Assembly (NCBI GenBank): GCA_034659275.1
Contig: JAYEGY010000029.1
Location: forward strand, 1,018-65,017
DNA length: 64,000 bases
From: Bacteroidota bacterium
Lineage (GTDB): Bacteria; Bacteroidota; Bacteroidia; Bacteroidales; VadinHA17
Direction of reading: 5' to 3'
Shown here: in pieces, positions 3,622 to 21,289 of the stretch
How positions within the stretch are numbered: position 1 is the stretch's first letter
How the letters are laid out: each line of letters opens with the position of its first letter
Program-made: the position numbers and the translations under genes
The notes under the pieces: generated by a model
Database searches by the model: none
What the model saw: the letters and a program-made list of their open reading frames with translations, nothing else
Told to the model about the DNA's origin: nothing

Positions 3622-3664
3622 TAGCCCTCCTTTCGCATTTCATCTTTCGCATATAGCATTTCCG

Positions 3665-3738
3665 TGATTCCGGGGGGACTCGAACCCCCAACCAACAGAA
3701 CCGGAATCTGTCATTCTATCCAATTGAACTACGGAACC
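3665..3738 (-). tRNA. tRNA-Arg(CCG)
   Basis: Minus strand GGTTCCGTAGTTCAATTGGATAGAA...ACAGA-TTCCGGT-TCTGT...GGTTCGAGTCC...GGAATCA; anticodon CCG; CCA not encoded. Confidence 0.95.
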
Positions 3739-10027: not shown

Positions 10028-10771
10028 GTGTTTCCCAATCACAACATTAATAAAAACACAAGAATCCTTAATAAAAAGGCATTCAGGTCTGCTTTAAAAA
10101 GAATACTGGGATTCACCCCTGCAAGGCTCGGAATTTACGAGCTCGCTTTTATCCATCGTTCCGCAACTTATGAACTATCTGATGGAAGCATTTTAAATAA
10201 TGAACGATTGGAATACCTTGGCGATGCCATTCTCGATGCAGTCCTCTCAGAATACCTCTACAGTAATTATCCGGAAGCTTCCGAAGGTGAATTAACCAAA
10301 CTAAGATCCAGGATTGCAAACAGGCTTACACTTAACAAACTGGCTTGTTCAATGGATATTAATAATATTGTAATAAGCCACCTGAGTAATAATTCATCCT
10401 CAGGAAACATATATGGCGATGCACTGGAAGCGCTTATCGGAGCCCTTTTTATTGATAAAGGATACTCCAGGACAAGAAAATTCATTATCAAAAATATATT
10501 AAAACATCATCTTGACTTGAAAAGGGTAATAAACACTGAAACCGATTATAAAAGCCAGATATTCCAGTGGGCGCAAAAACTGCAAAGACAAATAAGTTTT
10601 AATTATACCGAAGACTATAATTTCAATGAGAAAAAATATGTCTTTACCACGGTGCTCCTGATCAATCATGAAATTTTTGGAAAGGGTAGCGGATCTTCAA
10701 AAAAGGAAGCAGAACAAAAAGCTTCACTTCAGGCAATAAAGAAAATCAATAAGATGGGATTCCCTGTTTAA
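10028..10771 (+). CDS. rnc: Ribonuclease III
   Basis: NERLEYLGDA signature; C-terminal dsRBD (GSSKKEAEQ). Confidence 0.95.
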   Translation: MFPNHNINKNTRILNKKAFRSALKRILGFTPARLGIYELAFIHRSATYELSDGSILNNERLEYLGDAILDAVLSEYLYSNYPEASEGELTKLRSRIANRLTLNKLACSMDINNIVISHLSNNSSSGNIYGDALEALIGALFIDKGYSRTRKFIIKNILKHHLDLKRVINTETDYKSQIFQWAQKLQRQISFNYTEDYNFNEKKYVFTTVLLINHEIFGKGSGSSKKEAEQKASLQAIKKINKMGFPV

Positions 10772-10812: not shown

Positions 10813-11250
10813 ATGAAATCTCCGTCAAAAAAGACCAGGCATAAGCTGAGTGTCGATGACAATAATTCAGATCAGTATATAGGCCTTGTATCACCAGAAG
10901 CTGATTACAAGGTATCATTACTGATAAACCAGCAGCTCGGCATCAATCTTAGGAGTACCAGGCCGGTAATTAAAACTGCAAATAAGAAAGAGATCAGTTT
11001 TTCTAAATTTTCATGTGACTCAGAATACACTGAGACATCATACGAACTTATAAGCAACCGTTCTGGAAAGGAAACACTTCTCACCAAAATTCCTTCTTTG
11101 GACTATATCTTAAGGATTAAAGGTATACCGGCTTCAGTTACTATTGACGGTATAATTAATAAAATAAGAAACATCAGGGAGATAACGGGGGTTTTTGTAC
11201 TAGATAGAAAAAAGCAAATAGAAAATTCTGTCCTCAAAATATTAACCTGA
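10813..11250 (+). CDS. Probable IPExxxVDY-family protein
   Basis: Size, DYKVSLLINQQLG and 'IPSLDY' segments, position after rnc as in other Bacteroidota. Confidence 0.55.
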   Translation: MKSPSKKTRHKLSVDDNNSDQYIGLVSPEADYKVSLLINQQLGINLRSTRPVIKTANKKEISFSKFSCDSEYTETSYELISNRSGKETLLTKIPSLDYILRIKGIPASVTIDGIINKIRNIREITGVFVLDRKKQIENSVLKILT

Positions 11251-11346
11251 GATGGAAAAATTAAGGCTTAAGCTCTTAAGAAACGAATTCTCTACAGGAA
11301 GGAAAGTATTTTAAAAAATCTAAGGGGCTTCCAATAGAAAAGAATT

Positions 11347-11381
11347 AAAAAAAAATGAGCGAATAAAAATATCCGCTCATT
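11347..11381 (-). terminator. Intrinsic terminator on the minus strand with no upstream minus-strand CDS nearby
   Basis: Minus strand AATGAGCG-loop-CGCTCATT followed by a T run (A9 on plus, 11347-11355). Confidence 0.75.
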
Positions 11382-11510
11382 CTTAACTAACCCTAAAACC
11401 TAAGTTATGAAAAGTGTACCTCTGGTTTTTAGAAAGGAGGTGATAGCTCACCTCCCTGTTCTTGTTAAACCAAAAACTAACTAATCTAACCTATGAAAAA
11501 AACCTCATAA
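11347..11510 (-). ncRNA. Candidate sigma54-dependent two-module small RNA
   Basis: Bounded by TGGCACGGTGTTTGA and a terminator; two UUUUCAUA...GUUAGUU modules, each followed by a hairpin; no long ORF. Confidence 0.6.
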
Positions 11511-11518
11511 TAATAACC

Positions 11519-11533
11519 TCAAACACCGTGCCA
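11519..11533 (-). promoter_or_regulatory. sigma54 (-24/-12)-type promoter
   Basis: Minus strand TGGCAC-GGTGT-TTGA versus consensus TGGCAC-N5-TTGC. Confidence 0.6.
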
Positions 11534-11665
11534 GTATTTAATTATCAAAGAGCATTTCTAATGGTATGGAACAAAAGTTGTACCACTATCAGATATAATA
11601 TCAATCTATAATCTTAAAATGACGTTAAATTACGTTAAAAAGCTCTTAATGTTAATTTTAAGAAA

Positions 11666-11673
11666 TACTTTTG
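11666..11673 (+). promoter_or_regulatory. Bacteroidota primary-sigma -7 box for the histidine kinase
   Basis: TACTTTTG matches TAnnTTTG, about 55 bp upstream of the ATG. Confidence 0.5.
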
Positions 11674-11727
11674 TAAAATAGAAGAAGGATATTTACACTG
11701 GGAAACCAGAGGGTAGCAGGTTAATAG

Positions 11728-13272
11728 ATGAAGAAAAAAATAATAATAATACTTGCTGTAGTAATCTCAATTGCATTATCAGGGCTGATGATGATCCAGA
11801 TATATTGGATTAACAATGCAATTGAGGCTAAAAACCAGCAGTTCAGGGTATATGTCAATAATGCTCTCACTGCTGTTGTTCTTGATATGGAACAACAAGA
11901 AATAATAGAAAGGATAGTTGAAGAGATTGATATGCCCATGACTGATTCTGTTGTTGCTATCGTTCCTTCCCAATCGGCTCTTGCCCGGCAGCTACGCGGT
12001 TACCGGTCTGAATCAAACATTCCCCTGCTTGAAGGGCAGGATGATATTATTGCTTCCCTCACAATAAGCAGGGAGGGGCAGAAAATACTCTTTTATTCTG
12101 ATGACGAGTTCTTCTATCCTGAAGAAGAACTACCCGAGTTATCATCACAGAGCCTCAGAGCGGGCATTAATGACAGGATAACAAATAAAACAGTTATGCT
12201 AGAAAGTATTATGGGTAAGATTATGGCCGAAACACCGGGTTTGTCAGAAAGAGTAGACCCGGAAAGGATAAACGATCAAATATATCAAACCCTTGAAAGG
12301 CTGGGAATATCCCTTGATTATGAATTTGCCATTACAGAATCAGGAAATCAGGTTTACAGCAGTGATGGTTTTGATATGGGATCCGATGCCAATAAATATA
12401 TAAGGCAATTATTCCCAAATGACCCTGTTCCCGGGCAGAATATGATCTATCTTTATTTCCCCAGGGAGAAGAACTATTTATTCAGGCAGGTCGGATTCAT
12501 GGGCGTTTCTTCCATTATCGTAACACTTTTCCTGATTGTCTTTTCCGTTAGTAATATTCTGATAATACTCAGGCAGAAAAGAGTATCGGAAATACGGAAC
12601 GATTTCATAAACAATATGACCCATGAGTTAAAAACCCCTATTTCTACAATCTCCCTTGCATCACAGATGATTGGTGACAGCAGTATTTCACGAAACAAAA
12701 AAAATCTTAATAAAATATCCAAAATATTAAGCGATGAATCTATAAGGCTGAAATACCAGGTCGAAAAAGTACTCCAGGCTTCTGCCTTTGATAGAGGCAA
12801 AATGAAATTGAACAAAGTTAACACTGACATTCACGGAATTATAAATAGCGCTATTGACAACTTCAGGCTGCAGATATCCGACACCGATGGCAAACTGGAA
12901 AAAGAACTCAACGCCAAAGATCCCGTCCTCAAAATTGATGAAGCACATATTTTTAACATGATATCCAACCTCCTGGATAACGCAATTAAATATTCAAATG
13001 GTAATCCTGAAATAAAAATTAAAACAAGCGATGACGACAGGCAGCTCAGGGTTTTAATATCAGATAATGGCATTGGCATACGAAAAGATGACATAAGGAA
13101 AATTTTCGAGAAGTTTTACAGGGTGCCAACAGGGAATATCCACAATGTTAAGGGCTTTGGACTGGGTCTGAGTTACGTGAAAAAAATAGTAGACGAACAT
13201 AATGGCAGTATCACTGTCCACAGTCAAATAAATAAAGGTGCTTGCTTTGACATTAGTCTTCCAAAAAATTAA
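11728..13272 (+). CDS. Sensor histidine kinase (RprX-like)
   Basis: Two TMs; H-box NNMTHELKTP; N-box NLLDNAIKY; G boxes DNGIG and GFGLGL. Confidence 0.92.
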   Translation: MKKKIIIILAVVISIALSGLMMIQIYWINNAIEAKNQQFRVYVNNALTAVVLDMEQQEIIERIVEEIDMPMTDSVVAIVPSQSALARQLRGYRSESNIPLLEGQDDIIASLTISREGQKILFYSDDEFFYPEEELPELSSQSLRAGINDRITNKTVMLESIMGKIMAETPGLSERVDPERINDQIYQTLERLGISLDYEFAITESGNQVYSSDGFDMGSDANKYIRQLFPNDPVPGQNMIYLYFPREKNYLFRQVGFMGVSSIIVTLFLIVFSVSNILIILRQKRVSEIRNDFINNMTHELKTPISTISLASQMIGDSSISRNKKNLNKISKILSDESIRLKYQVEKVLQASAFDRGKMKLNKVNTDIHGIINSAIDNFRLQISDTDGKLEKELNAKDPVLKIDEAHIFNMISNLLDNAIKYSNGNPEIKIKTSDDDRQLRVLISDNGIGIRKDDIRKIFEKFYRVPTGNIHNVKGFGLGLSYVKKIVDEHNGSITVHSQINKGACFDISLPKN

Positions 13273-13278
13273 TTGAAT

Positions 13279-13959
13279 ATGCCAAAAATATTATTAGCCG
13301 AAGATGACAGTAACCTTGGAACACTGCTAACTGATTATCTTGAAGCAAAAAAATACAAGGTTATACATATTACGGATGGACGGAAAGCACTGGAGACCTT
13401 CAGGTCAGAAACTTTTGACCTTTGTTTGCTAGATATTATGCTCCCTGCAATTGACGGTATAAGCCTGGCAAAAAAGATCAGGAAGATTGAAAGAGATATA
13501 CCTGTTATTTTTCTTACGGCCAAATCACTTGAGAAAGACAAGATCGAAGGATTTTCTGCAGGCGCTGATGACTATATAACCAAGCCCTTCTCAATGGAAG
13601 AGTTATTATACAGGATCGAAGCCATACTAAGGAGAACAAAATCATATAAAGAGGATGAGGCTGACGAATATAAGTTCGGGAAATTCACTTTTCACCTCCT
13701 GACACAGGTACTTGAATCTGACAAAGATGCACATAAACTTACAACCAAGGAATCAGAATTACTTAAGCTCCTGTGCAAAAATAAAAACGAGGTACTGGAA
13801 AGAAATTATGCCTTACGCACTATATGGGTCGATGACAATTATTTCAATGCACGCAGCATGGATGTCTATATTACCAAACTGAGGAAATACCTGAAAGCTG
13901 ATCCTTCAGTCACCATACTTAATGTACACGGTAAAGGGTACAAACTTCTATGTAAATAA
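13279..13959 (+). CDS. OmpR-family response regulator (RprY-like)
   Basis: REC (LLAEDD, LLDIMLP, KPF) plus winged helix with WVDDNYFNARSMDVYITKLRK. Confidence 0.92.
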   Translation: MPKILLAEDDSNLGTLLTDYLEAKKYKVIHITDGRKALETFRSETFDLCLLDIMLPAIDGISLAKKIRKIERDIPVIFLTAKSLEKDKIEGFSAGADDYITKPFSMEELLYRIEAILRRTKSYKEDEADEYKFGKFTFHLLTQVLESDKDAHKLTTKESELLKLLCKNKNEVLERNYALRTIWVDDNYFNARSMDVYITKLRKYLKADPSVTILNVHGKGYKLLCK

Positions 13960-19506: not shown

Positions 19507-20052
19507 CTACCAGTTTACAAATGCCCTGTTAAAGACATCTTCAATTATTTGCTCGACTATTTTCTCCGTTAATTCCTGTTCCACCTGGCTCAGCTCCTTT
19601 GAACTGTCATAATTTTCGTACCTGGTAAATGTTTGTTCAAAACTGTATTCCGGTTCAACCACATTGGTGAACTTAACGTTAACTGCAATAGTAAACCTGT
19701 TCATAGCAGCTCTTGCATCACCTGATACGGTAAGTGGCTCAGTCCGGTAATTCCTTATCTCTCCTTCAAAACTTACATCCCCGGCTTCATTGACAAAATT
19801 CAGGTTCGTCTGGGCCCTGCATTTGTCCATCAGTTCATCAGTAATATACTGGCTCAGTCCTGGTTGAACCAGGTTAGCCCTGTTTTCAAAATATTCCACG
19901 CTAATGGTCTTGACATCTGGTGAAATACTTGCTCCACTCATTGAATAACTAATGGTGCATCCCGAATCGGTGAGTGACAGGAAAACAAAGACCGGGATAA
20001 TCACCGGTCCTAATATAAATTTTGAATATATATATTTAAAGATCGATGCCAT
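19507..20052 (-). CDS. lptE: LptE-family lipoprotein
   Basis: SGC lipobox, YSMSGASI, C-terminal FNRAFVNW typical of Bacteroidota LptE; start uncertain. Confidence 0.75.
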   Translation of the reverse strand: MASIFKYIYSKFILGPVIIPVFVFLSLTDSGCTISYSMSGASISPDVKTISVEYFENRANLVQPGLSQYITDELMDKCRAQTNLNFVNEAGDVSFEGEIRNYRTEPLTVSGDARAAMNRFTIAVNVKFTNVVEPEYSFEQTFTRYENYDSSKELSQVEQELTEKIVEQIIEDVFNRAFVNW

Positions 20053-21289
20053 ACTCCTTAATTTTTCTGTACAGTGTCCTTTCTGATATACCCAATTCTT
20101 CGGCCGCGAGCTTTCTTTTTCCGTTATGTTTCTCAAGTGCCTTGGTAATCAACTCAATCTCTTTATCCACCAGTGAAAGTGACTCTTCCACTATTTCTTC
20201 GGTATCCTGTATATTATCAGGCTGCTTGCCGGGTGAAAAATTATGACTGGCTTCATCCCGTGGCATATCATTTTTTTCGGAAATATTTCTCAATTCTTTT
20301 TCGTCATACAATCGTTGAATTACGCCTGAACTATGATCATCGAGCTGCACTGAAGAACTGCCTTCCTGGATCATATTGAGCACAAGTCTTTTCAGGTCAT
20401 TCACGTCATTCTTCATATCGAAGAGTATTTTATACAATATCTCTCTTTCAGATGAGAATGAGCCTTCCCCTTCCCTGCTTATTATTGCGGGCAGTTTAAT
20501 ACTGCTGTAATCGGGCAGGTAAGCTTTTAACATCTCAGCGTCAATCTCCCTTGCGCCCTCAATAATTGATATTTGTTCGGTAATATTTTTTAATTGTCTC
20601 ACATTACCGGGCCATGAATAAGATGTCAGCATTTGACGTGCATCTTCCGTGAGCTTCACAGCAGGCATGCGGTATTTTTCCGCAAAATCAAGCGCGAATT
20701 TCCTGAATAATAATAATATATCATCTCCCCTGTCTTTAAGGGGAGGTATTTTTATAGGTACAGTATTAAGCCGGTAAAACAGATCTTCCCTGAATTTACC
20801 AGCCCTGATGGCCTGCAATATATCAATGTTTGTTGCAGCTATAACCCTAACATTTGTCTTCTGCACTTTTGATGAACCTACCCTGATGAACTCACCCGAT
20901 TCAAGCACCCGAAGCAGCCTTACCTGTGTTGCTGAGGGTAACTCGGAAACTTCATCAAGAAAAATTGTTCCTCCGTCGGCCACTTCAAAATAACCCTTAC
21001 GGCTATCCGTTGCTCCCGTAAATGAACCTTTTTCATGGCCAAATAATTCCGAATCTATGGTACCTTCAGGTATGGCCCCACAATTCACTGCTATATATTG
21101 CCCGTGTTTCCGCTTGCTATGGTGATGGATTATCTGGGGAAATATCTCCTTCCCTGTTCCGCTTTCCCCTGAAATAAGTACAGAGAGATCTGTAGGTGCA
21201 ACCTGTACAGCAATATCGATTGCCCTGTTAAGCCCCACGTAATTGCCTATAATACCGAATCTCTGCTTTATGCTTTGTAAATCTTTCAT
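20036..21289 (-). CDS. sigma54-dependent Fis-family transcriptional activator (no receiver domain)
   Basis: GESGTGKE Walker A, GSFTGA loop, FLDEV, WPGNVRQL, C-terminal HTH. Confidence 0.93.
   Translation of the reverse strand: MKDLQSIKQRFGIIGNYVGLNRAIDIAVQVAPTDLSVLISGESGTGKEIFPQIIHHHSKRKHGQYIAVNCGAIPEGTIDSELFGHEKGSFTGATDSRKGYFEVADGGTIFLDEVSELPSATQVRLLRVLESGEFIRVGSSKVQKTNVRVIAATNIDILQAIRAGKFREDLFYRLNTVPIKIPPLKDRGDDILLLFRKFALDFAEKYRMPAVKLTEDARQMLTSYSWPGNVRQLKNITEQISIIEGAREIDAEMLKAYLPDYSSIKLPAIISREGEGSFSSEREILYKILFDMKNDVNDLKRLVLNMIQEGSSSVQLDDHSSGVIQRLYDEKELRNISEKNDMPRDEASHNFSPGKQPDNIQDTEEIVEESLSLVDKEIELITKALEKHNGKRKLAAEELGISERTLYRKIKEYGIDL

Follow-up and report, generated by a model that had tools for sequence, protein, structure and literature searches.

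The minus strand of the window (the whole stretch of 64,000 nt analysed here) carries a genuine gene for a small regulatory RNA, strongly conserved and belonging to environmental Bacteroidales. Its anatomy is well defined, its sequence and its place between neighbours are conserved, its promoter belongs to the class found at heat-shock genes, it is related to the FopS small RNAs (sRNAs) of Bacteroides, and abundant short RNA contigs from relatives match it. Taken together, the locus is probably best explained as a diverged two-seed tandem belonging to a single-copy family of sRNAs that occurs in a single family of environmental Bacteroidales; these sRNAs are themselves part of the superfamily of the Bacteroides FopS, GibS and BTnc231 sRNAs. 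The product would be a trans-acting RNA of ~160 nt, driven from a -24/-12 promoter and occluding the start regions of mRNAs.

Anatomy, conservation and expression of the RNA gene

The initial annotation had read a promoter-like motif, two modules separated by a hairpin, and a terminator from the minus strand between 11533 and 11347, and a sequence check confirmed each of these elements at its coordinates. Of the interpretations given there, most gained support and none that could be checked met with contradiction. Together with the neighbourhood, the elements are as follows.

10028-10771, plus strand: rnc (RNase III; Pfam), convergent, downstream of the RNA gene
10813-11250, plus strand: IPExxxVDY-family gene (NCBIfam NF033205, 67.8 bits against a cut-off of 40), convergent, downstream
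11347-11384, minus strand: Rho-independent terminator, with a 15-pair stem (11384-11351), a 4-nt loop and U9 (11355-11347)
11382-11418, minus strand: module 2, the second seed, CUUUUCAU-AACUUAGGUUUUAGGGUUAGUUAAG, with UUUUCAU at 11413-11407
11436-11455, minus strand: internal hairpin GGAGGUGA-GCUA-UCACCUCC, an 8-pair stem, then UUUCU
11462-11507, minus strand: module 1, the 5' single-stranded seed, with GAGG (11506-11503), U7 (11502-11496) and CAU (11495-11493)
11533-11519, minus strand: P1, a -24/-12 (sigma-54-type) motif by sequence, TGGCAC-N5-TTGA, reading TGGCACGGTGTTTGA
11571-11585, minus strand: second -24/-12-like motif, TGGTAC-N5-TTGT, upstream of P1 and oriented as P1
11610-11675, no strand assigned: intergenic block conserved in the genus alignment
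11728-13272, plus strand: histidine kinase (Pfam HisKA and HATPase_c), divergent from the RNA
13273-13959, plus strand: RprY-like OmpR-family response regulator (Pfam Response_reg and Trans_reg_C)

Module 1 (GAGG-U7-CAU-AGGUUAGAUUAGUUAG...) is the reverse complement of ...CUAACCUAUGAAAAAAACC, and module 2 that of ...AAGUUAUGAAAAG. The two are related and stand in tandem, as the initial annotation had supposed, since R1, a model of single-module relatives, matches both: module 1 with 37.8 bits (E 1.8e-10, 11448-11506) and module 2 plus terminator with 22.4 bits (E 1.1e-5, 11349-11413). The hairpin between them looks like a decayed module 1 terminator, and the single-module RNA of another genus (L025/L045) ends with the same hairpin and a long U/C-rich tail. 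The 161-nt RNA (11507-11347) folds at -53.5 kcal/mol, against -28.6 ± 3.3 kcal/mol for 200 shuffles (z = -7.49), none of which (0/200) matched its energy. A terminator scan of a 1.3-kb region returned two sites against 0.8 expected. The terminator hairpin has its U-run on the minus strand only, a T-run being absent on the plus-strand side. Portions of seed 1 and of module 2 are paired with each other in the predicted fold; as none of these pairs varies, covariation speaks neither for nor against them.

The most decisive sign that the arrangement exceeds chance is its recurrence as one block in relatives: the whole promoter-module-terminator layout is kept at 80-95% identity in 14 of the 15 other genomes of the genus; G010 (same genus, 94% complete) gave no copy with the queries used. 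Many of the genus matches start at the T of TGGCAC (query position 28) and end at the U-run (211-215), and TGGCA[CT]-N5-TTG is found in 15/15 genus sequences, counting one TGGTAC. Module 1 is invariant across the genus alignment and module 2 is kept, with an extra TTAGGTT unit in 11/15 sequences. The internal hairpin shows one compensatory pair change, G-C to A-U (L024). The terminator stem is kept in all 15 genus sequences, with single-side changes (G-U/A-U and G-U/G-C). The second upstream motif is also conserved in the genus alignment, as TGG[CT]AC-N5-TTTGT, and lies at about -110 in 10/10 public two-module loci with enough upstream sequence.

These conservation edges, the strand-specific terminator and the deep contigs of relatives described below fit the claim of a minus-strand non-coding RNA, as does the fate of the plus-strand reading. 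Two ATG-AAA starts do open plus-strand ORFs, 5 and 25 codons long in the window, and mini-ORFs at these two ATGAAAA sites could be taken as the functional products. This is scarcely credible given their lack of conservation: among the 15 genus sequences the length of the longer ORF ranges between 4 and over 34 codons, with unrelated sequences after MKSV, the shorter leaves the conserved block after five codons, and the linker has indels whose lengths are not divisible by three.

Beyond the genus, the 19-nt seed is present in at least 119 public contigs, whose hosts are, by record title and among the matches listed, environmental and not gut organisms. With up to two mismatches in 24 nt, the seed was found in 169/201 genomes of the same family, spread over six of its 15 genera; the other nine genera gave no copy with these seed queries. 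In an order-wide sample it was found in 2/151 genomes, both from the same family. Copy number is low, with one match in 161 of the 169 positive genomes and two in the remaining 8. Nor did the genome-wide search for paralogues suggested in the initial annotation reveal any in the gene's own genome: the 3.11-Mb assembly (95% complete) holds no second copy, and blastn-short returned elsewhere only matches of 13-20 nt.

The single-module relatives measure ~75-83 nt, and the first 43-44 nt are identical in 64 distinct copies. Their terminators have 23 distinct 5' arms, yet 6.43 of the outer seven positions are paired, against 3.69 (maximum 4.30) in an arm-shuffle control of 500 shuffles, a test aligned by structure and thus biased towards pairing. 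This per-sequence fold took the place of RNAalifold on a MAFFT alignment of the 64 copies, in which stems of unequal length were misaligned and the terminator was therefore missed.

Contigs of 35-111 nt fall on 11387-11505 in three metatranscriptome runs from two studies, with summed word depths per bin of up to 5.7e4, 1.7e5 and 2.8e4. In runs X1 and X2 the short contigs do not continue into unlike sequence. Contigs bridge the internal hairpin (records 4, 5, 9 and 22), and Illumina adapter letters abut them on the high side at 11496, 11502 (+3 nt) and 11503 (+6 nt). A single contig of low depth has its end 12 nt further upstream and bears the adapter in the opposite orientation. Over the four runs used, eleven others with small shares (0.07-0.14) being set aside, the bin 11506-11522 has depths of 265, 21, 0 and 0.5, the terminator (bins 11336-11386) is covered at a low 3.9-315, and the bins 11523-11700 and those below 11319 have depth 0. 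Low or zero depth is not evidence of absence, since relatives have unlike flanks and libraries made by random priming cover structured 3' ends poorly. Being assembled contigs of relatives, these data cannot establish ends, strand or level, and they give a weak to moderate hint that the RNA is expressed in relatives. The very high depth suggests that it is among the most abundant in-situ transcripts of these organisms.

Promoter class and genomic setting

The sigma-54 reading of P1 offered by the initial annotation draws comparative support from the conserved motif, from its occurrence at heat-shock genes and from the presence of rpoN, but the canonical C at -12 is missing. P1 has TGGCAC, with GG at 11532/11531 and the GG-N10-G spacing, and predicts a +1 at ~11507-11505; the -12 C is A here (TTGA). 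TGGCA[CT]-N5-TTG stands at a fixed distance in 109 of the 123 family matches listed. Within the family TGGCA and TTTG are kept at 97-98%, while the base after TTG is A in 55%, T in 25%, G in 14% and C, the rarest, in 6%. In the same genome the exact motif occurs in intergenic DNA upstream of the genes for Hsp70 (dnaK), Hsp90 (htpG), Hsp20, Lon and RsfS, and the dnaK, htpG and hsp20 promoters also read TTGA. The dnaK motif lies at ~-60 in 12/12 same-genus dnaK loci with upstream sequence (own genome included) and at -61 to -137 in 6/7 loci of other families. The genome encodes one rpoN (a Sigma54_DBD gene, 178 bits) and three full enhancer-binding genes (Sigma54_activat, 226-246 bits), of which the window contains one (20036-21289). 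No enhancer or RprY site common to the RNA gene and dnaK was found: TGTCA-N-TGACA occurs in 1/106 loci, and no 7-mer is present in both upstream sets. In Flavobacterium psychrophilum, the available text of PMC9723704 places groESL, lon, dnaK, grpE-dnaJ, htpG, skp and clpB under sigma-54 control, and the predicted sigma-54 regulon of Bacteroidota is enriched in such protein-quality gene groups (PMC12316311, accessible part). The searched literature, mostly without subscription journals and supplements, held no description of a sigma-54-dependent sRNA in Bacteroidota.

The main competitor accepts the RNA as real but has it transcribed by the housekeeping Bacteroidota sigma factor. A GAnnTTTG stretch inside P1 resembles the sigma-A box and could act as a weak -7 box, or else an upstream TAnnTTTG could fire in the single-module forms, TGGCAY then being a regulator site or a portion of the 5' leader. 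Several observations fit such a promoter. A canonical TAnnTTTG box lies ~47 nt upstream of the seed in 89/106 family loci (exactly at -47 in 62), conservation does not extend to the C of the sigma-54 -12 GC, and the low-depth metatranscriptome contig mentioned above ends 12 nt upstream of GAGG. A TAnnTTTG box also stands 4-5 nt before +1 in 12/12 true FopS loci inspected, in agreement with the available text of PMC11697453. Against these, the window's genus is without the upstream TAnnTTTG, yet keeps TGGCAC-N5-TTG; the 15 nt that precede the conserved 5' end of the RNA contain no TAnnTTTG, TGGCAC-N5-TTGA standing there instead. The near-invariant TGGCA is not needed by a sigma-A promoter, and the dnaK motif has ATTG and not TTTG, which makes the -7 box reading impossible there. 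Sequence conservation has an edge at the predicted +1, and the adapter-abutted ends of the deep contigs of relatives lie at positions equivalent to 11496-11509, near the +1 at 11507 predicted from the -24 GG, although contig ends are no proof of a start. We regard housekeeping transcription as unlikely, and putative dependence of the gene on sigma-54, as read from the promoter sequence, is the preferred assignment.

The divergent neighbour is RprX-like, as initially annotated: its partner regulator scores 339.1 bits on the NCBIfam RprY model, which is below the cut-off of 370. In 100/109 family loci a homologue of the kinase stands upstream of the RNA in divergent orientation, followed by the regulator in 86, and this synteny holds down to 38% kinase identity. 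Downstream, homologues occupy the same places for rnc in 88/109 and for the IPExxxVDY gene in 90/109 family loci. Within the conserved intergenic block, the TAnnTTTG box TACTTTTG (11666-11673, plus strand) serves the RprXY-like operon, and TTAAC-type repeats 10 nt apart are candidate regulator sites. The related blocks of single-module loci have CTTTAAC-N3-CTTTAAC and the inverted repeat TTAACA-N14-TGTTAA. Relative to the RNA gene, the conserved repeats lie ~75 to 170 nt upstream (-75 to -170). According to the accessible text of PMC3646045, RprY of P. gingivalis binds the groES, dnaK, clpB and rprY promoters and behaves like a repressor. RprY may thus be linked to the RNA. In five FopS-bearing genomes no FopS-like RNA was found within ~2.5 kb upstream of rprX at E up to 0.1. 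The IPExxxVDY protein had no match in these five genomes, an observation that carries no weight either way.

So fixed a position (~90-100 of 109 loci), together with a regulatory block common to the gene and the rprXY promoter, is also what a cis-acting element would show, be it a leader, a source of transcriptional interference on the divergent rprXY, or a terminator for the IPExxxVDY gene. The geometry makes such a role very improbable: the RNA is directed away from rprXY, it ends 97 nt short of the stop of the convergent gene and so overlaps neither neighbour, and its terminator has a U-run on the minus strand only. Conservation is moreover strongest in the unstructured 5' part, as is typical of trans-acting seeds.

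Candidate targets and proposed function

The initial annotation proposed that the RNA blocks start codons of exported-protein mRNAs, an action that remains plausible by analogy with FopS. In-register pairing runs of at least 12 occur at 144/2436 predicted starts (5.9%), compared with 603/60123 internal ATGs (1.0%), and 95 of the 144 run-bearing starts have signal-peptide-like N-termini, against 31.5% of the rest. Both excesses are explained by Met-Lys-Lys (MK[KR]) starts, and among MK[KR] starters the signal-peptide excess is gone (68/86 versus 134/180, p = 0.45). Duplex energies were no better at start regions than internally (for seed 1 at or below -18 kcal/mol, 488 versus 468). An annotation-free genome search for long in-register complementarity returned nothing beyond the gene itself and singled out no specific target. 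Signal-peptide proteins of at least 900 aa have in-register runs of at least 12 in 11/58 cases, compared with 5.9% of all genes, which is suggestive only. On the whole, the evidence for targets is weak.

On the preferred reading, transcription would run on the minus strand from ~11507 to 11347, from a promoter of the -24/-12 class of dnaK, htpG, hsp20 and lon. That class corresponds to the published sigma-54 protein-quality and envelope-stress regulon, so proteotoxic or envelope stress would switch the RNA on, and the RprXY system next to it may contribute extra control. Each module would present a single-stranded U-run, CAU and a UUAGG-rich stretch, able to pair with the A/C-rich leader of an mRNA, its AUG and the A-rich (Met-Lys-Lys) codons that follow. 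If FopS-10 and susC are taken as the model, this would mask the region where translation is initiated. Because Met-Lys-Lys starts mostly belong to signal peptides in this genome, exported and outer-membrane proteins would make up most of the affected class. Having two unlike seeds (CCUAUGAAAAAAA-type and GUUAUGAAAAG-type) would either broaden the range of targets or divide it. To our knowledge, Bacteroidota are without Hfq and without Shine-Dalgarno-led initiation.

The same seeds would look alike if the RNA were mainly a ligand or sponge for a protein, such as an RbpB-like RRM protein, or a decoy of start regions, with no specific mRNA pairing; the likeness to FopS would then stem partly from common constraints of protein binding or mimicry. 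The 44-nt single-stranded part is invariant across genera, beyond what a short seed usually needs, the genome encodes two RRM_1 proteins, and no specific target was singled out. RbpB, moreover, binds the 5' part of FopS RNAs (PMC11697453, available text). The same source describes direct pairing of FopS-10 with susC, which blocks translation, with compensatory mutations, and each module here is an exact antisense of AUG plus A-rich codons that is enriched in register at real starts. A sponge or decoy is for these reasons a distinctly improbable alternative to pairing.

A broader synthesis, which we advance tentatively and which may well prove wrong, joins function and evolution: the RNA would be the non-coding arm of a Bacteroidota sigma-54/RprXY response to proteostasis and envelope stress that throttles Met-Lys-Lys mRNAs, with a seed re-wired between regulons. 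Misfolding would fire the RNA through the promoter class that also induces DnaK, HtpG, Hsp20 and Lon, and initiation on mRNAs with Met-Lys-Lys starts (signal-peptide mRNAs) would be throttled as a class, a counterpart of the sigmaE-dependent MicA, RybB and MicL. An ancestral seed would have come under a sigma-A box and a palindromic operator, in multiple copies, in the gut FopS RNAs, and under sigma-54, as a single copy beside rprXY, here; tandem duplication, more than once, would have diversified the seeds.

FopS-type RNAs were hitherto described in gut Bacteroides, where they occur in many copies, are driven by sigma-A and repress glycan transporters. The present locus extends this kind of anti-start-codon RNA to a large environmental clade of Bacteroidales and to a new regulatory setting, with one copy per genome, beside RprXY down to 38% kinase identity, and with the promoter class of heat-shock genes. 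If the proposed wiring is true, it would offer a model for the coupling of folding and envelope stress to a general brake on exported-protein synthesis. The locus also illustrates cleanly how sRNAs evolve by exchanging promoters and duplicating seeds in tandem.

Comparison with known small RNAs

The initial annotation likened the design to the FopS RNAs of B. thetaiotaomicron (RF04319), and the relationship stands, in the form of reciprocal sub-threshold matches; membership of the Rfam family does not, the scores being 26.4, 20.8 and 40.8 bits against a gathering threshold of 56. The first belongs to module 2 plus terminator (11346-11419), the second to module 1 (11426-11503) and the third to the single-module copy of G024 (E 2.7e-4 per genome), while true FopS copies in the same order reach 56-87 bits (22/151 genomes). 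Conversely, model R1 matches 9/12 true FopS loci (E 0.0009-0.098) and a true BTnc231 (E 7e-5), in each case at the position of the sRNA. No Rfam family reaches its gathering score at the element. Elsewhere in the genome the FopS model gives 16-24 bits, which is noise level, as the controls E. coli and B. subtilis also match.

FopS RNAs consist of a 5' single-stranded seed and a terminator, and pairing at the susC start blocks translation in vitro, an effect that RbpB counteracts (PMC11697453, available text). The same layout is present in module 2 plus terminator (~73 nt, 11419-11347) and in the single-module relatives: a U-run with CAU and a UUAG or UUA(A/G)GGUUA seed, antisense to start-codon regions, is directly followed by the terminator. 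The host is likewise a member of the Bacteroidales that encodes RRM proteins, two of the RRM_1 type in the present genome. FopS differs in having 14 paralogues in gut hosts, preceded by a TAnnTTTG box and an upstream ATGTTnTAnAACAT palindrome, whereas the RNA described here is a single copy in environmental hosts, fixed in place beside rprXY, with a -24/-12 motif and two diverged modules in one transcript of ~160 nt.

The BTnc231 model (RF04180) spans the whole element with 26.1 bits (E 0.004 per genome), its best match in the genome. BTnc231 and GibS resemble the element in length (~145-154 nt) and in order, with a U-run and CAU seed, a hairpin, another region and a terminator in succession (PMC7366714). 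A true BTnc231 copy (132 bits), however, carries a TATCTTTG box and lacks rprXY and rnc within 5 kb, and orthology is ruled out by context and promoter, the score here lying far below the threshold of 80.4 bits. GibS, with no Rfam match here at E up to 10, likewise works with two seeds, R1 and R2, and its promoter is non-canonical, but this PM2 promoter is described as near-palindromic with -10 and -30 elements, not -24/-12 (PMC7366714). The top Rfam match, the L20 leader (RF00558), scores 36.2 bits against a threshold of 58.7, a score resting on the U-rich linker and the terminator, and its context is wrong, the neighbours being the IPExxxVDY gene and the histidine kinase instead of infC-rpmI-rplT.

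Among Proteobacteria, GlmY of E. coli is a sigma-54-dependent sRNA, and the Qrr sRNAs of Vibrio, in the available description, depend on sigma-54 via LuxO. What the present RNA would share with them is a -24/-12 promoter that needs an enhancer-binding protein, and seed pairing at mRNA 5' regions. They differ in being unrelated in sequence, Hfq-dependent and from another phylum, and in serving quorum sensing or amino-sugar control, not proteostasis. In E. coli, the sigmaE-dependent MicA, RybB and MicL and the EnvZ/OmpR-dependent OmrA/B lower the synthesis of outer-membrane and exported proteins. With these the RNA has no sequence relation, and it would use another sigma factor; the likeness is one of proposed logic alone, a stress-induced sRNA that would lower outer-membrane and exported proteins, both induction and targets being proposals in the present case.

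Anatomy and conservation of the sRNA locus

A gene for a small RNA (sRNA) of about 161 nt with two U-rich modules, or seeds, very probably lies on the minus strand at 11507-11347; its source assembly (contig C29) comprises 3.11 Mb at 41% G+C and is 95% complete. Every part of the element described in the initial annotation was located on this strand at the position assigned to it:

11533-11519, minus: promoter motif TGGCACGGTGTTTGA (P1)
11506-11493, minus: module 1, U-rich, starting GAGG-U7-CAU
11455-11436, minus: internal GC-rich hairpin
11413-11407, minus: module 2, with UUUUCAU
11384-11351, minus: terminator stem of 15 pairs
11355-11347, minus: U9 run after the terminator stem

The terminator U-run is present on the minus strand only, and the 161-nt RNA folds much more strongly than shuffled sequences (z = -7.49). 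Within the genus, a 261-nt query matches 14 of 15 other genomes at 80-95% identity, the sole genome without a match being G010 (94% complete). In the genus alignment, DNA 5' of TGGCAC is unalignable, a variable A/T-rich spacer of 13-14 nt follows TTTG, the sequence is near-invariant from TGAGG across both modules and both hairpins, and similarity ends past the U-run. Module 2 carries an extra TTAGGTT unit in 11 of the 15 genus sequences. The plus-strand mini-ORFs lack conservation: the longer one varies across the genus from 4 to >34 codons and is unrelated past four residues. Taken together, the bounds of conservation, the non-conserved plus-strand ORFs and the minus-only U-run form the pattern of a minus-strand promoter with a gene for a non-coding RNA.

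Four metatranscriptome runs from three studies were compared as assembled contigs. Only small shares of the stretch are found in these salt-lake and sediment data, and their source is relatives other than this strain. Three runs (two studies) contain contigs of 35-111 nt on 11387-11505 at very high word depth; several contigs span the internal hairpin, and in runs X1 and X2 the deep sRNA contigs do not continue into unlike sequence. The read-1 Illumina adapter directly adjoins contigs on the low side (11370, 11387-11394) and the read-through adapter on the high side (11496; 11502 plus 3 nt; 11503 plus 6 nt), a uniform orientation that fits minus-strand RNA in a dUTP-type library. The pattern is also consistent with RNA 5' ends a few bases from the +1 predicted by the -24 GG (11507); one low-depth contig reaches 12 nt further upstream. 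Since neither ends, strand nor level can be established from contigs, these data are taken as a hint that the sRNA is expressed in relatives as a short minus-strand RNA.

The wider sRNA family

At least 119 contigs from species-representative genomes contain the first 19 nt of module 1. Among the matches listed, the hosts are, by record title, nearly all environmental Bacteroidales MAGs, and TGGCA[CT]-N5-TTG lies at a fixed 29-30 nt upstream of the seed in 109 of 123 (TGGTAC in 1); the 13 listed matches without the motif include 3 second copies of exact tandem duplications, ~6 chance matches and 3-4 degenerate ones. The commonest form has a single module, in which AGAGG-U7-CAUAGGUUAGGUUAGUUUUAGGGUUAUCAAAA does not vary over 43-44 nt among 64 distinct copies. 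Its seed is followed by a GC-rich terminator of variable sequence (23 different 5' arms), in which 6.43 of the outer 7 positions are paired, versus 3.69 for shuffled arms (maximum 4.30 in 500 shuffles). In a sample of 151 genomes spanning the order, a 24-nt seed, counted with up to 2 mismatches, was found in 2, each a member of the window's own family; within that family it was found in 169 of 201 genomes (≥90% complete). By genus, the counts are 6/7 (g1), 3/3 (g2), 1/1 (g8), 112/118 (g10), 4/4 (g158) and 42/42 (g160), and the same query matched none of 25 genomes in nine other genera of the family.

Eight genomes have two seed matches, and two such pairs are visibly tandem, with separations of 76 and 126 nt. 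The two-module form in the window thus looks like an older tandem duplication with diverged halves; its first hairpin has the same sequence as the single-module terminator in another genus, here followed only by UUUCU. Tandem duplications of the single-module sRNA, exact or nearly so and independent of one another, are seen at loci L064, L065 and L071, where the U-tail is lost from the first copy's hairpin, and at G353:C19:39698-39797 and G337:C1:1872421-1872570.

Genomic setting and promoter

The genes flanking the sRNA are all on the plus strand, and are listed here with that of an enhancer-binding protein:

plus: fabF, flanking gene
10028-10771, plus: rnc
10813-11250, plus: IPExxxVDY-family gene
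11728-13272, plus: histidine kinase
13273-13959, plus: RprY-like response regulator (NCBIfam RprY model 339 bits, cut-off 370)
20036-21289, minus: enhancer-binding protein, 417 aa, AAA+ domain from residue 11

Among 109 oriented loci of the sRNA family, a kinase homologue (38-91% identity to that of the window) lies divergently upstream of the sRNA in 100, with a response regulator behind it in 86, and the IPExxxVDY gene and rnc lie convergently downstream in 90 and 88, respectively; loci lacking a neighbour are cut by locus ends. The intergenic region shared with the kinase operon contains a conserved TAnnTTTG box for that operon on the other strand and conserved TTAAC-type direct repeats 10 nt apart. 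Single-module loci have an inverted repeat TTAACA-N14-TGTTAA, a T-tract and an additional TAnnTTTG box at about -47. In the window's genus this box is replaced by a second, genus-conserved TGG[CT]AC-N5-TTTGT motif (11585-11571, minus) in the same orientation as P1 and followed by a conserved AAATGCTCTTTGAAAAT. It lies 52 nt upstream of P1 in the window and ~80 nt in relatives, the window genome having a deletion of ~29 nt between the two.

The sRNA family keeps TTTGGCA[CT]GATATTTG, with TGGCA and TTTG at 97-98% and GG-N10-G spacing. The genome encodes rpoN and three enhancer-binding proteins; the protein at 20036-21289 has no N-terminal receiver or sensor domain, a PspF-like layout. Exact TGGCA[CT]-N5-TTGN occurs 61 times in the genome, versus 39 for the reversed control, and intergenic copies lie upstream of Hsp70, Hsp90, Hsp20, Lon, RsfS and this sRNA, as well as of a serpin, an M23 peptidase, a PKD lipoprotein, a DUF3078 protein and a tRNA-Arg. 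The dnaK copy is kept at about -60 at 12/12 same-genus loci with upstream sequence, and is present at 6/7 loci in other families. Sigma-54 promoters are described before groESL, lon, dnaK, grpE-dnaJ, htpG, skp and clpB in Flavobacterium psychrophilum (PMC9723704), and the predicted Bacteroidota sigma-54 regulon is reported as enriched in those protein-quality gene groups (PMC12316311). Two features speak against a plain sigma-54 reading: the canonical base is missing, A following TTG in the window and C being the least frequent base at that place across the family, and the GAnnTTTG stretch in the motif, with the extra TAnnTTTG box of most single-module loci, would allow transcription of the sRNA by sigma-A. 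Sigma-54 dependence, as first proposed, is judged probable.

Two further observations concern other promoters. Upstream of dnaK in several families (L187-L205), conserved TGTCA-N3-TGACA-type palindromes lie ~90-140 nt upstream, above the -24/-12 motif, and are candidate enhancer sites of a heat-shock regulon. The tRNA-Arg(CCG) at 3664-3738 (minus) has TGGCACTCTCTTTGAA ~45-60 nt upstream, a -24/-12-type motif that it shares with the heat-shock genes and the sRNA and that would be an unusual promoter for a tRNA gene.

Relation to FopS and proposed action

In an Rfam scan of the window only a tRNA reaches its family threshold. Below threshold, the FopS model (RF04319) scores 26.4 bits on module 2 plus terminator and 20.8 bits on module 1, and the BTnc231 model (RF04180) scores 26.1 bits over the whole element, its best match in the genome; alone, these scores are near noise level. 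In an order-wide sample of 151 genomes, 22 have true FopS copies (56-87 bits), and the FopS model yields a graded weaker series, including 40.8 bits (E 2.7e-4) on a single-module copy in genome G024. Reciprocally, a sequence-only model of the single-module sRNAs matches module 1 (E 1.8e-10), module 2 (E 1.1e-5), 9 of 12 true FopS loci and one true BTnc231, the last two at the sRNA position (E 7e-5 to 0.1). The graded series and these matches link the two families, and the window's sRNA is most probably a distant FopS relative. The FopS likeness suggested in the initial annotation is thus borne out as distant relatedness, but not as FopS membership, from which the Rfam threshold, copy number and promoter set it apart.

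Orthology with BTnc231 was rejected, as a true BTnc231 is preceded by a sigma-A box and lies among other genes. The 5' half of one true copy (L206, G155:C1:260591-260737) reaches 52.8 bits with the FopS model, slightly below threshold, so that BTnc231 is itself a FopS-like module extended at its 3' side.

FopS RNAs are described as ~65-70 nt long, with a 5' single-stranded seed and a terminator, transcribed from canonical sigma-ABfr promoters and opposed by RbpB; they pair beside the start codon of susC-type mRNAs, with in vitro translation block and compensatory mutations reported (PMC11697453). By analogy, the window's sRNA may work in a FopS-like mode and would occlude the translation start sites of mRNAs for exported and outer-membrane proteins, which is its likeliest action, held at slightly better than even confidence. 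The reverse complements of both seeds read as leader, AUG and Lys codons. In-register pairing (CAU on AUG) in runs of ≥12 is found at 5.9% of 2436 starts, predicted by a crude longest-ORF heuristic, versus 1.0% of 60123 internal ATGs. Signal-peptide-like N-termini make up 66% of in-register matches versus 31.5% of the remainder. This excess vanishes among MK[KR] starters; the seed therefore picks a class, Met-Lys-Lys starts (76% exported-looking), rather than identifiable genes. Start regions cannot be told from the interiors of genes by duplex energy alone, and no long complementary target site was found for the seeds. A link to stress is suggested by the promoter class, the fixed place beside rprXY and the binding of Porphyromonas gingivalis RprY, described as repressor-like, to the groES, dnaK, clpB and rprY promoters (PMC3646045); no site common to the upstream regions of the sRNA and dnaK was found.

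At true FopS loci (L165-L176, from 12 other genera), a near-palindrome ATGTTnTAnAACAT lies 20-35 nt upstream of the start, just above the TAnnTTTG box, and is a candidate operator for a regulator of FopS induction. All 12 loci have a TA(ta/tc)TTTG box 4-5 nt ahead of the first base and none has TGGCA. In five genomes with FopS, no FopS-like RNA was found within ~2.5 kb upstream of rprX (E up to 0.1). Whereas FopS is multicopy and has a sigma-A promoter, the sRNA described here is new in being single-copy and syntenic with rprXY, in carrying a -24/-12 promoter of the class found before heat-shock genes, and in its tandem duplication within the genus.
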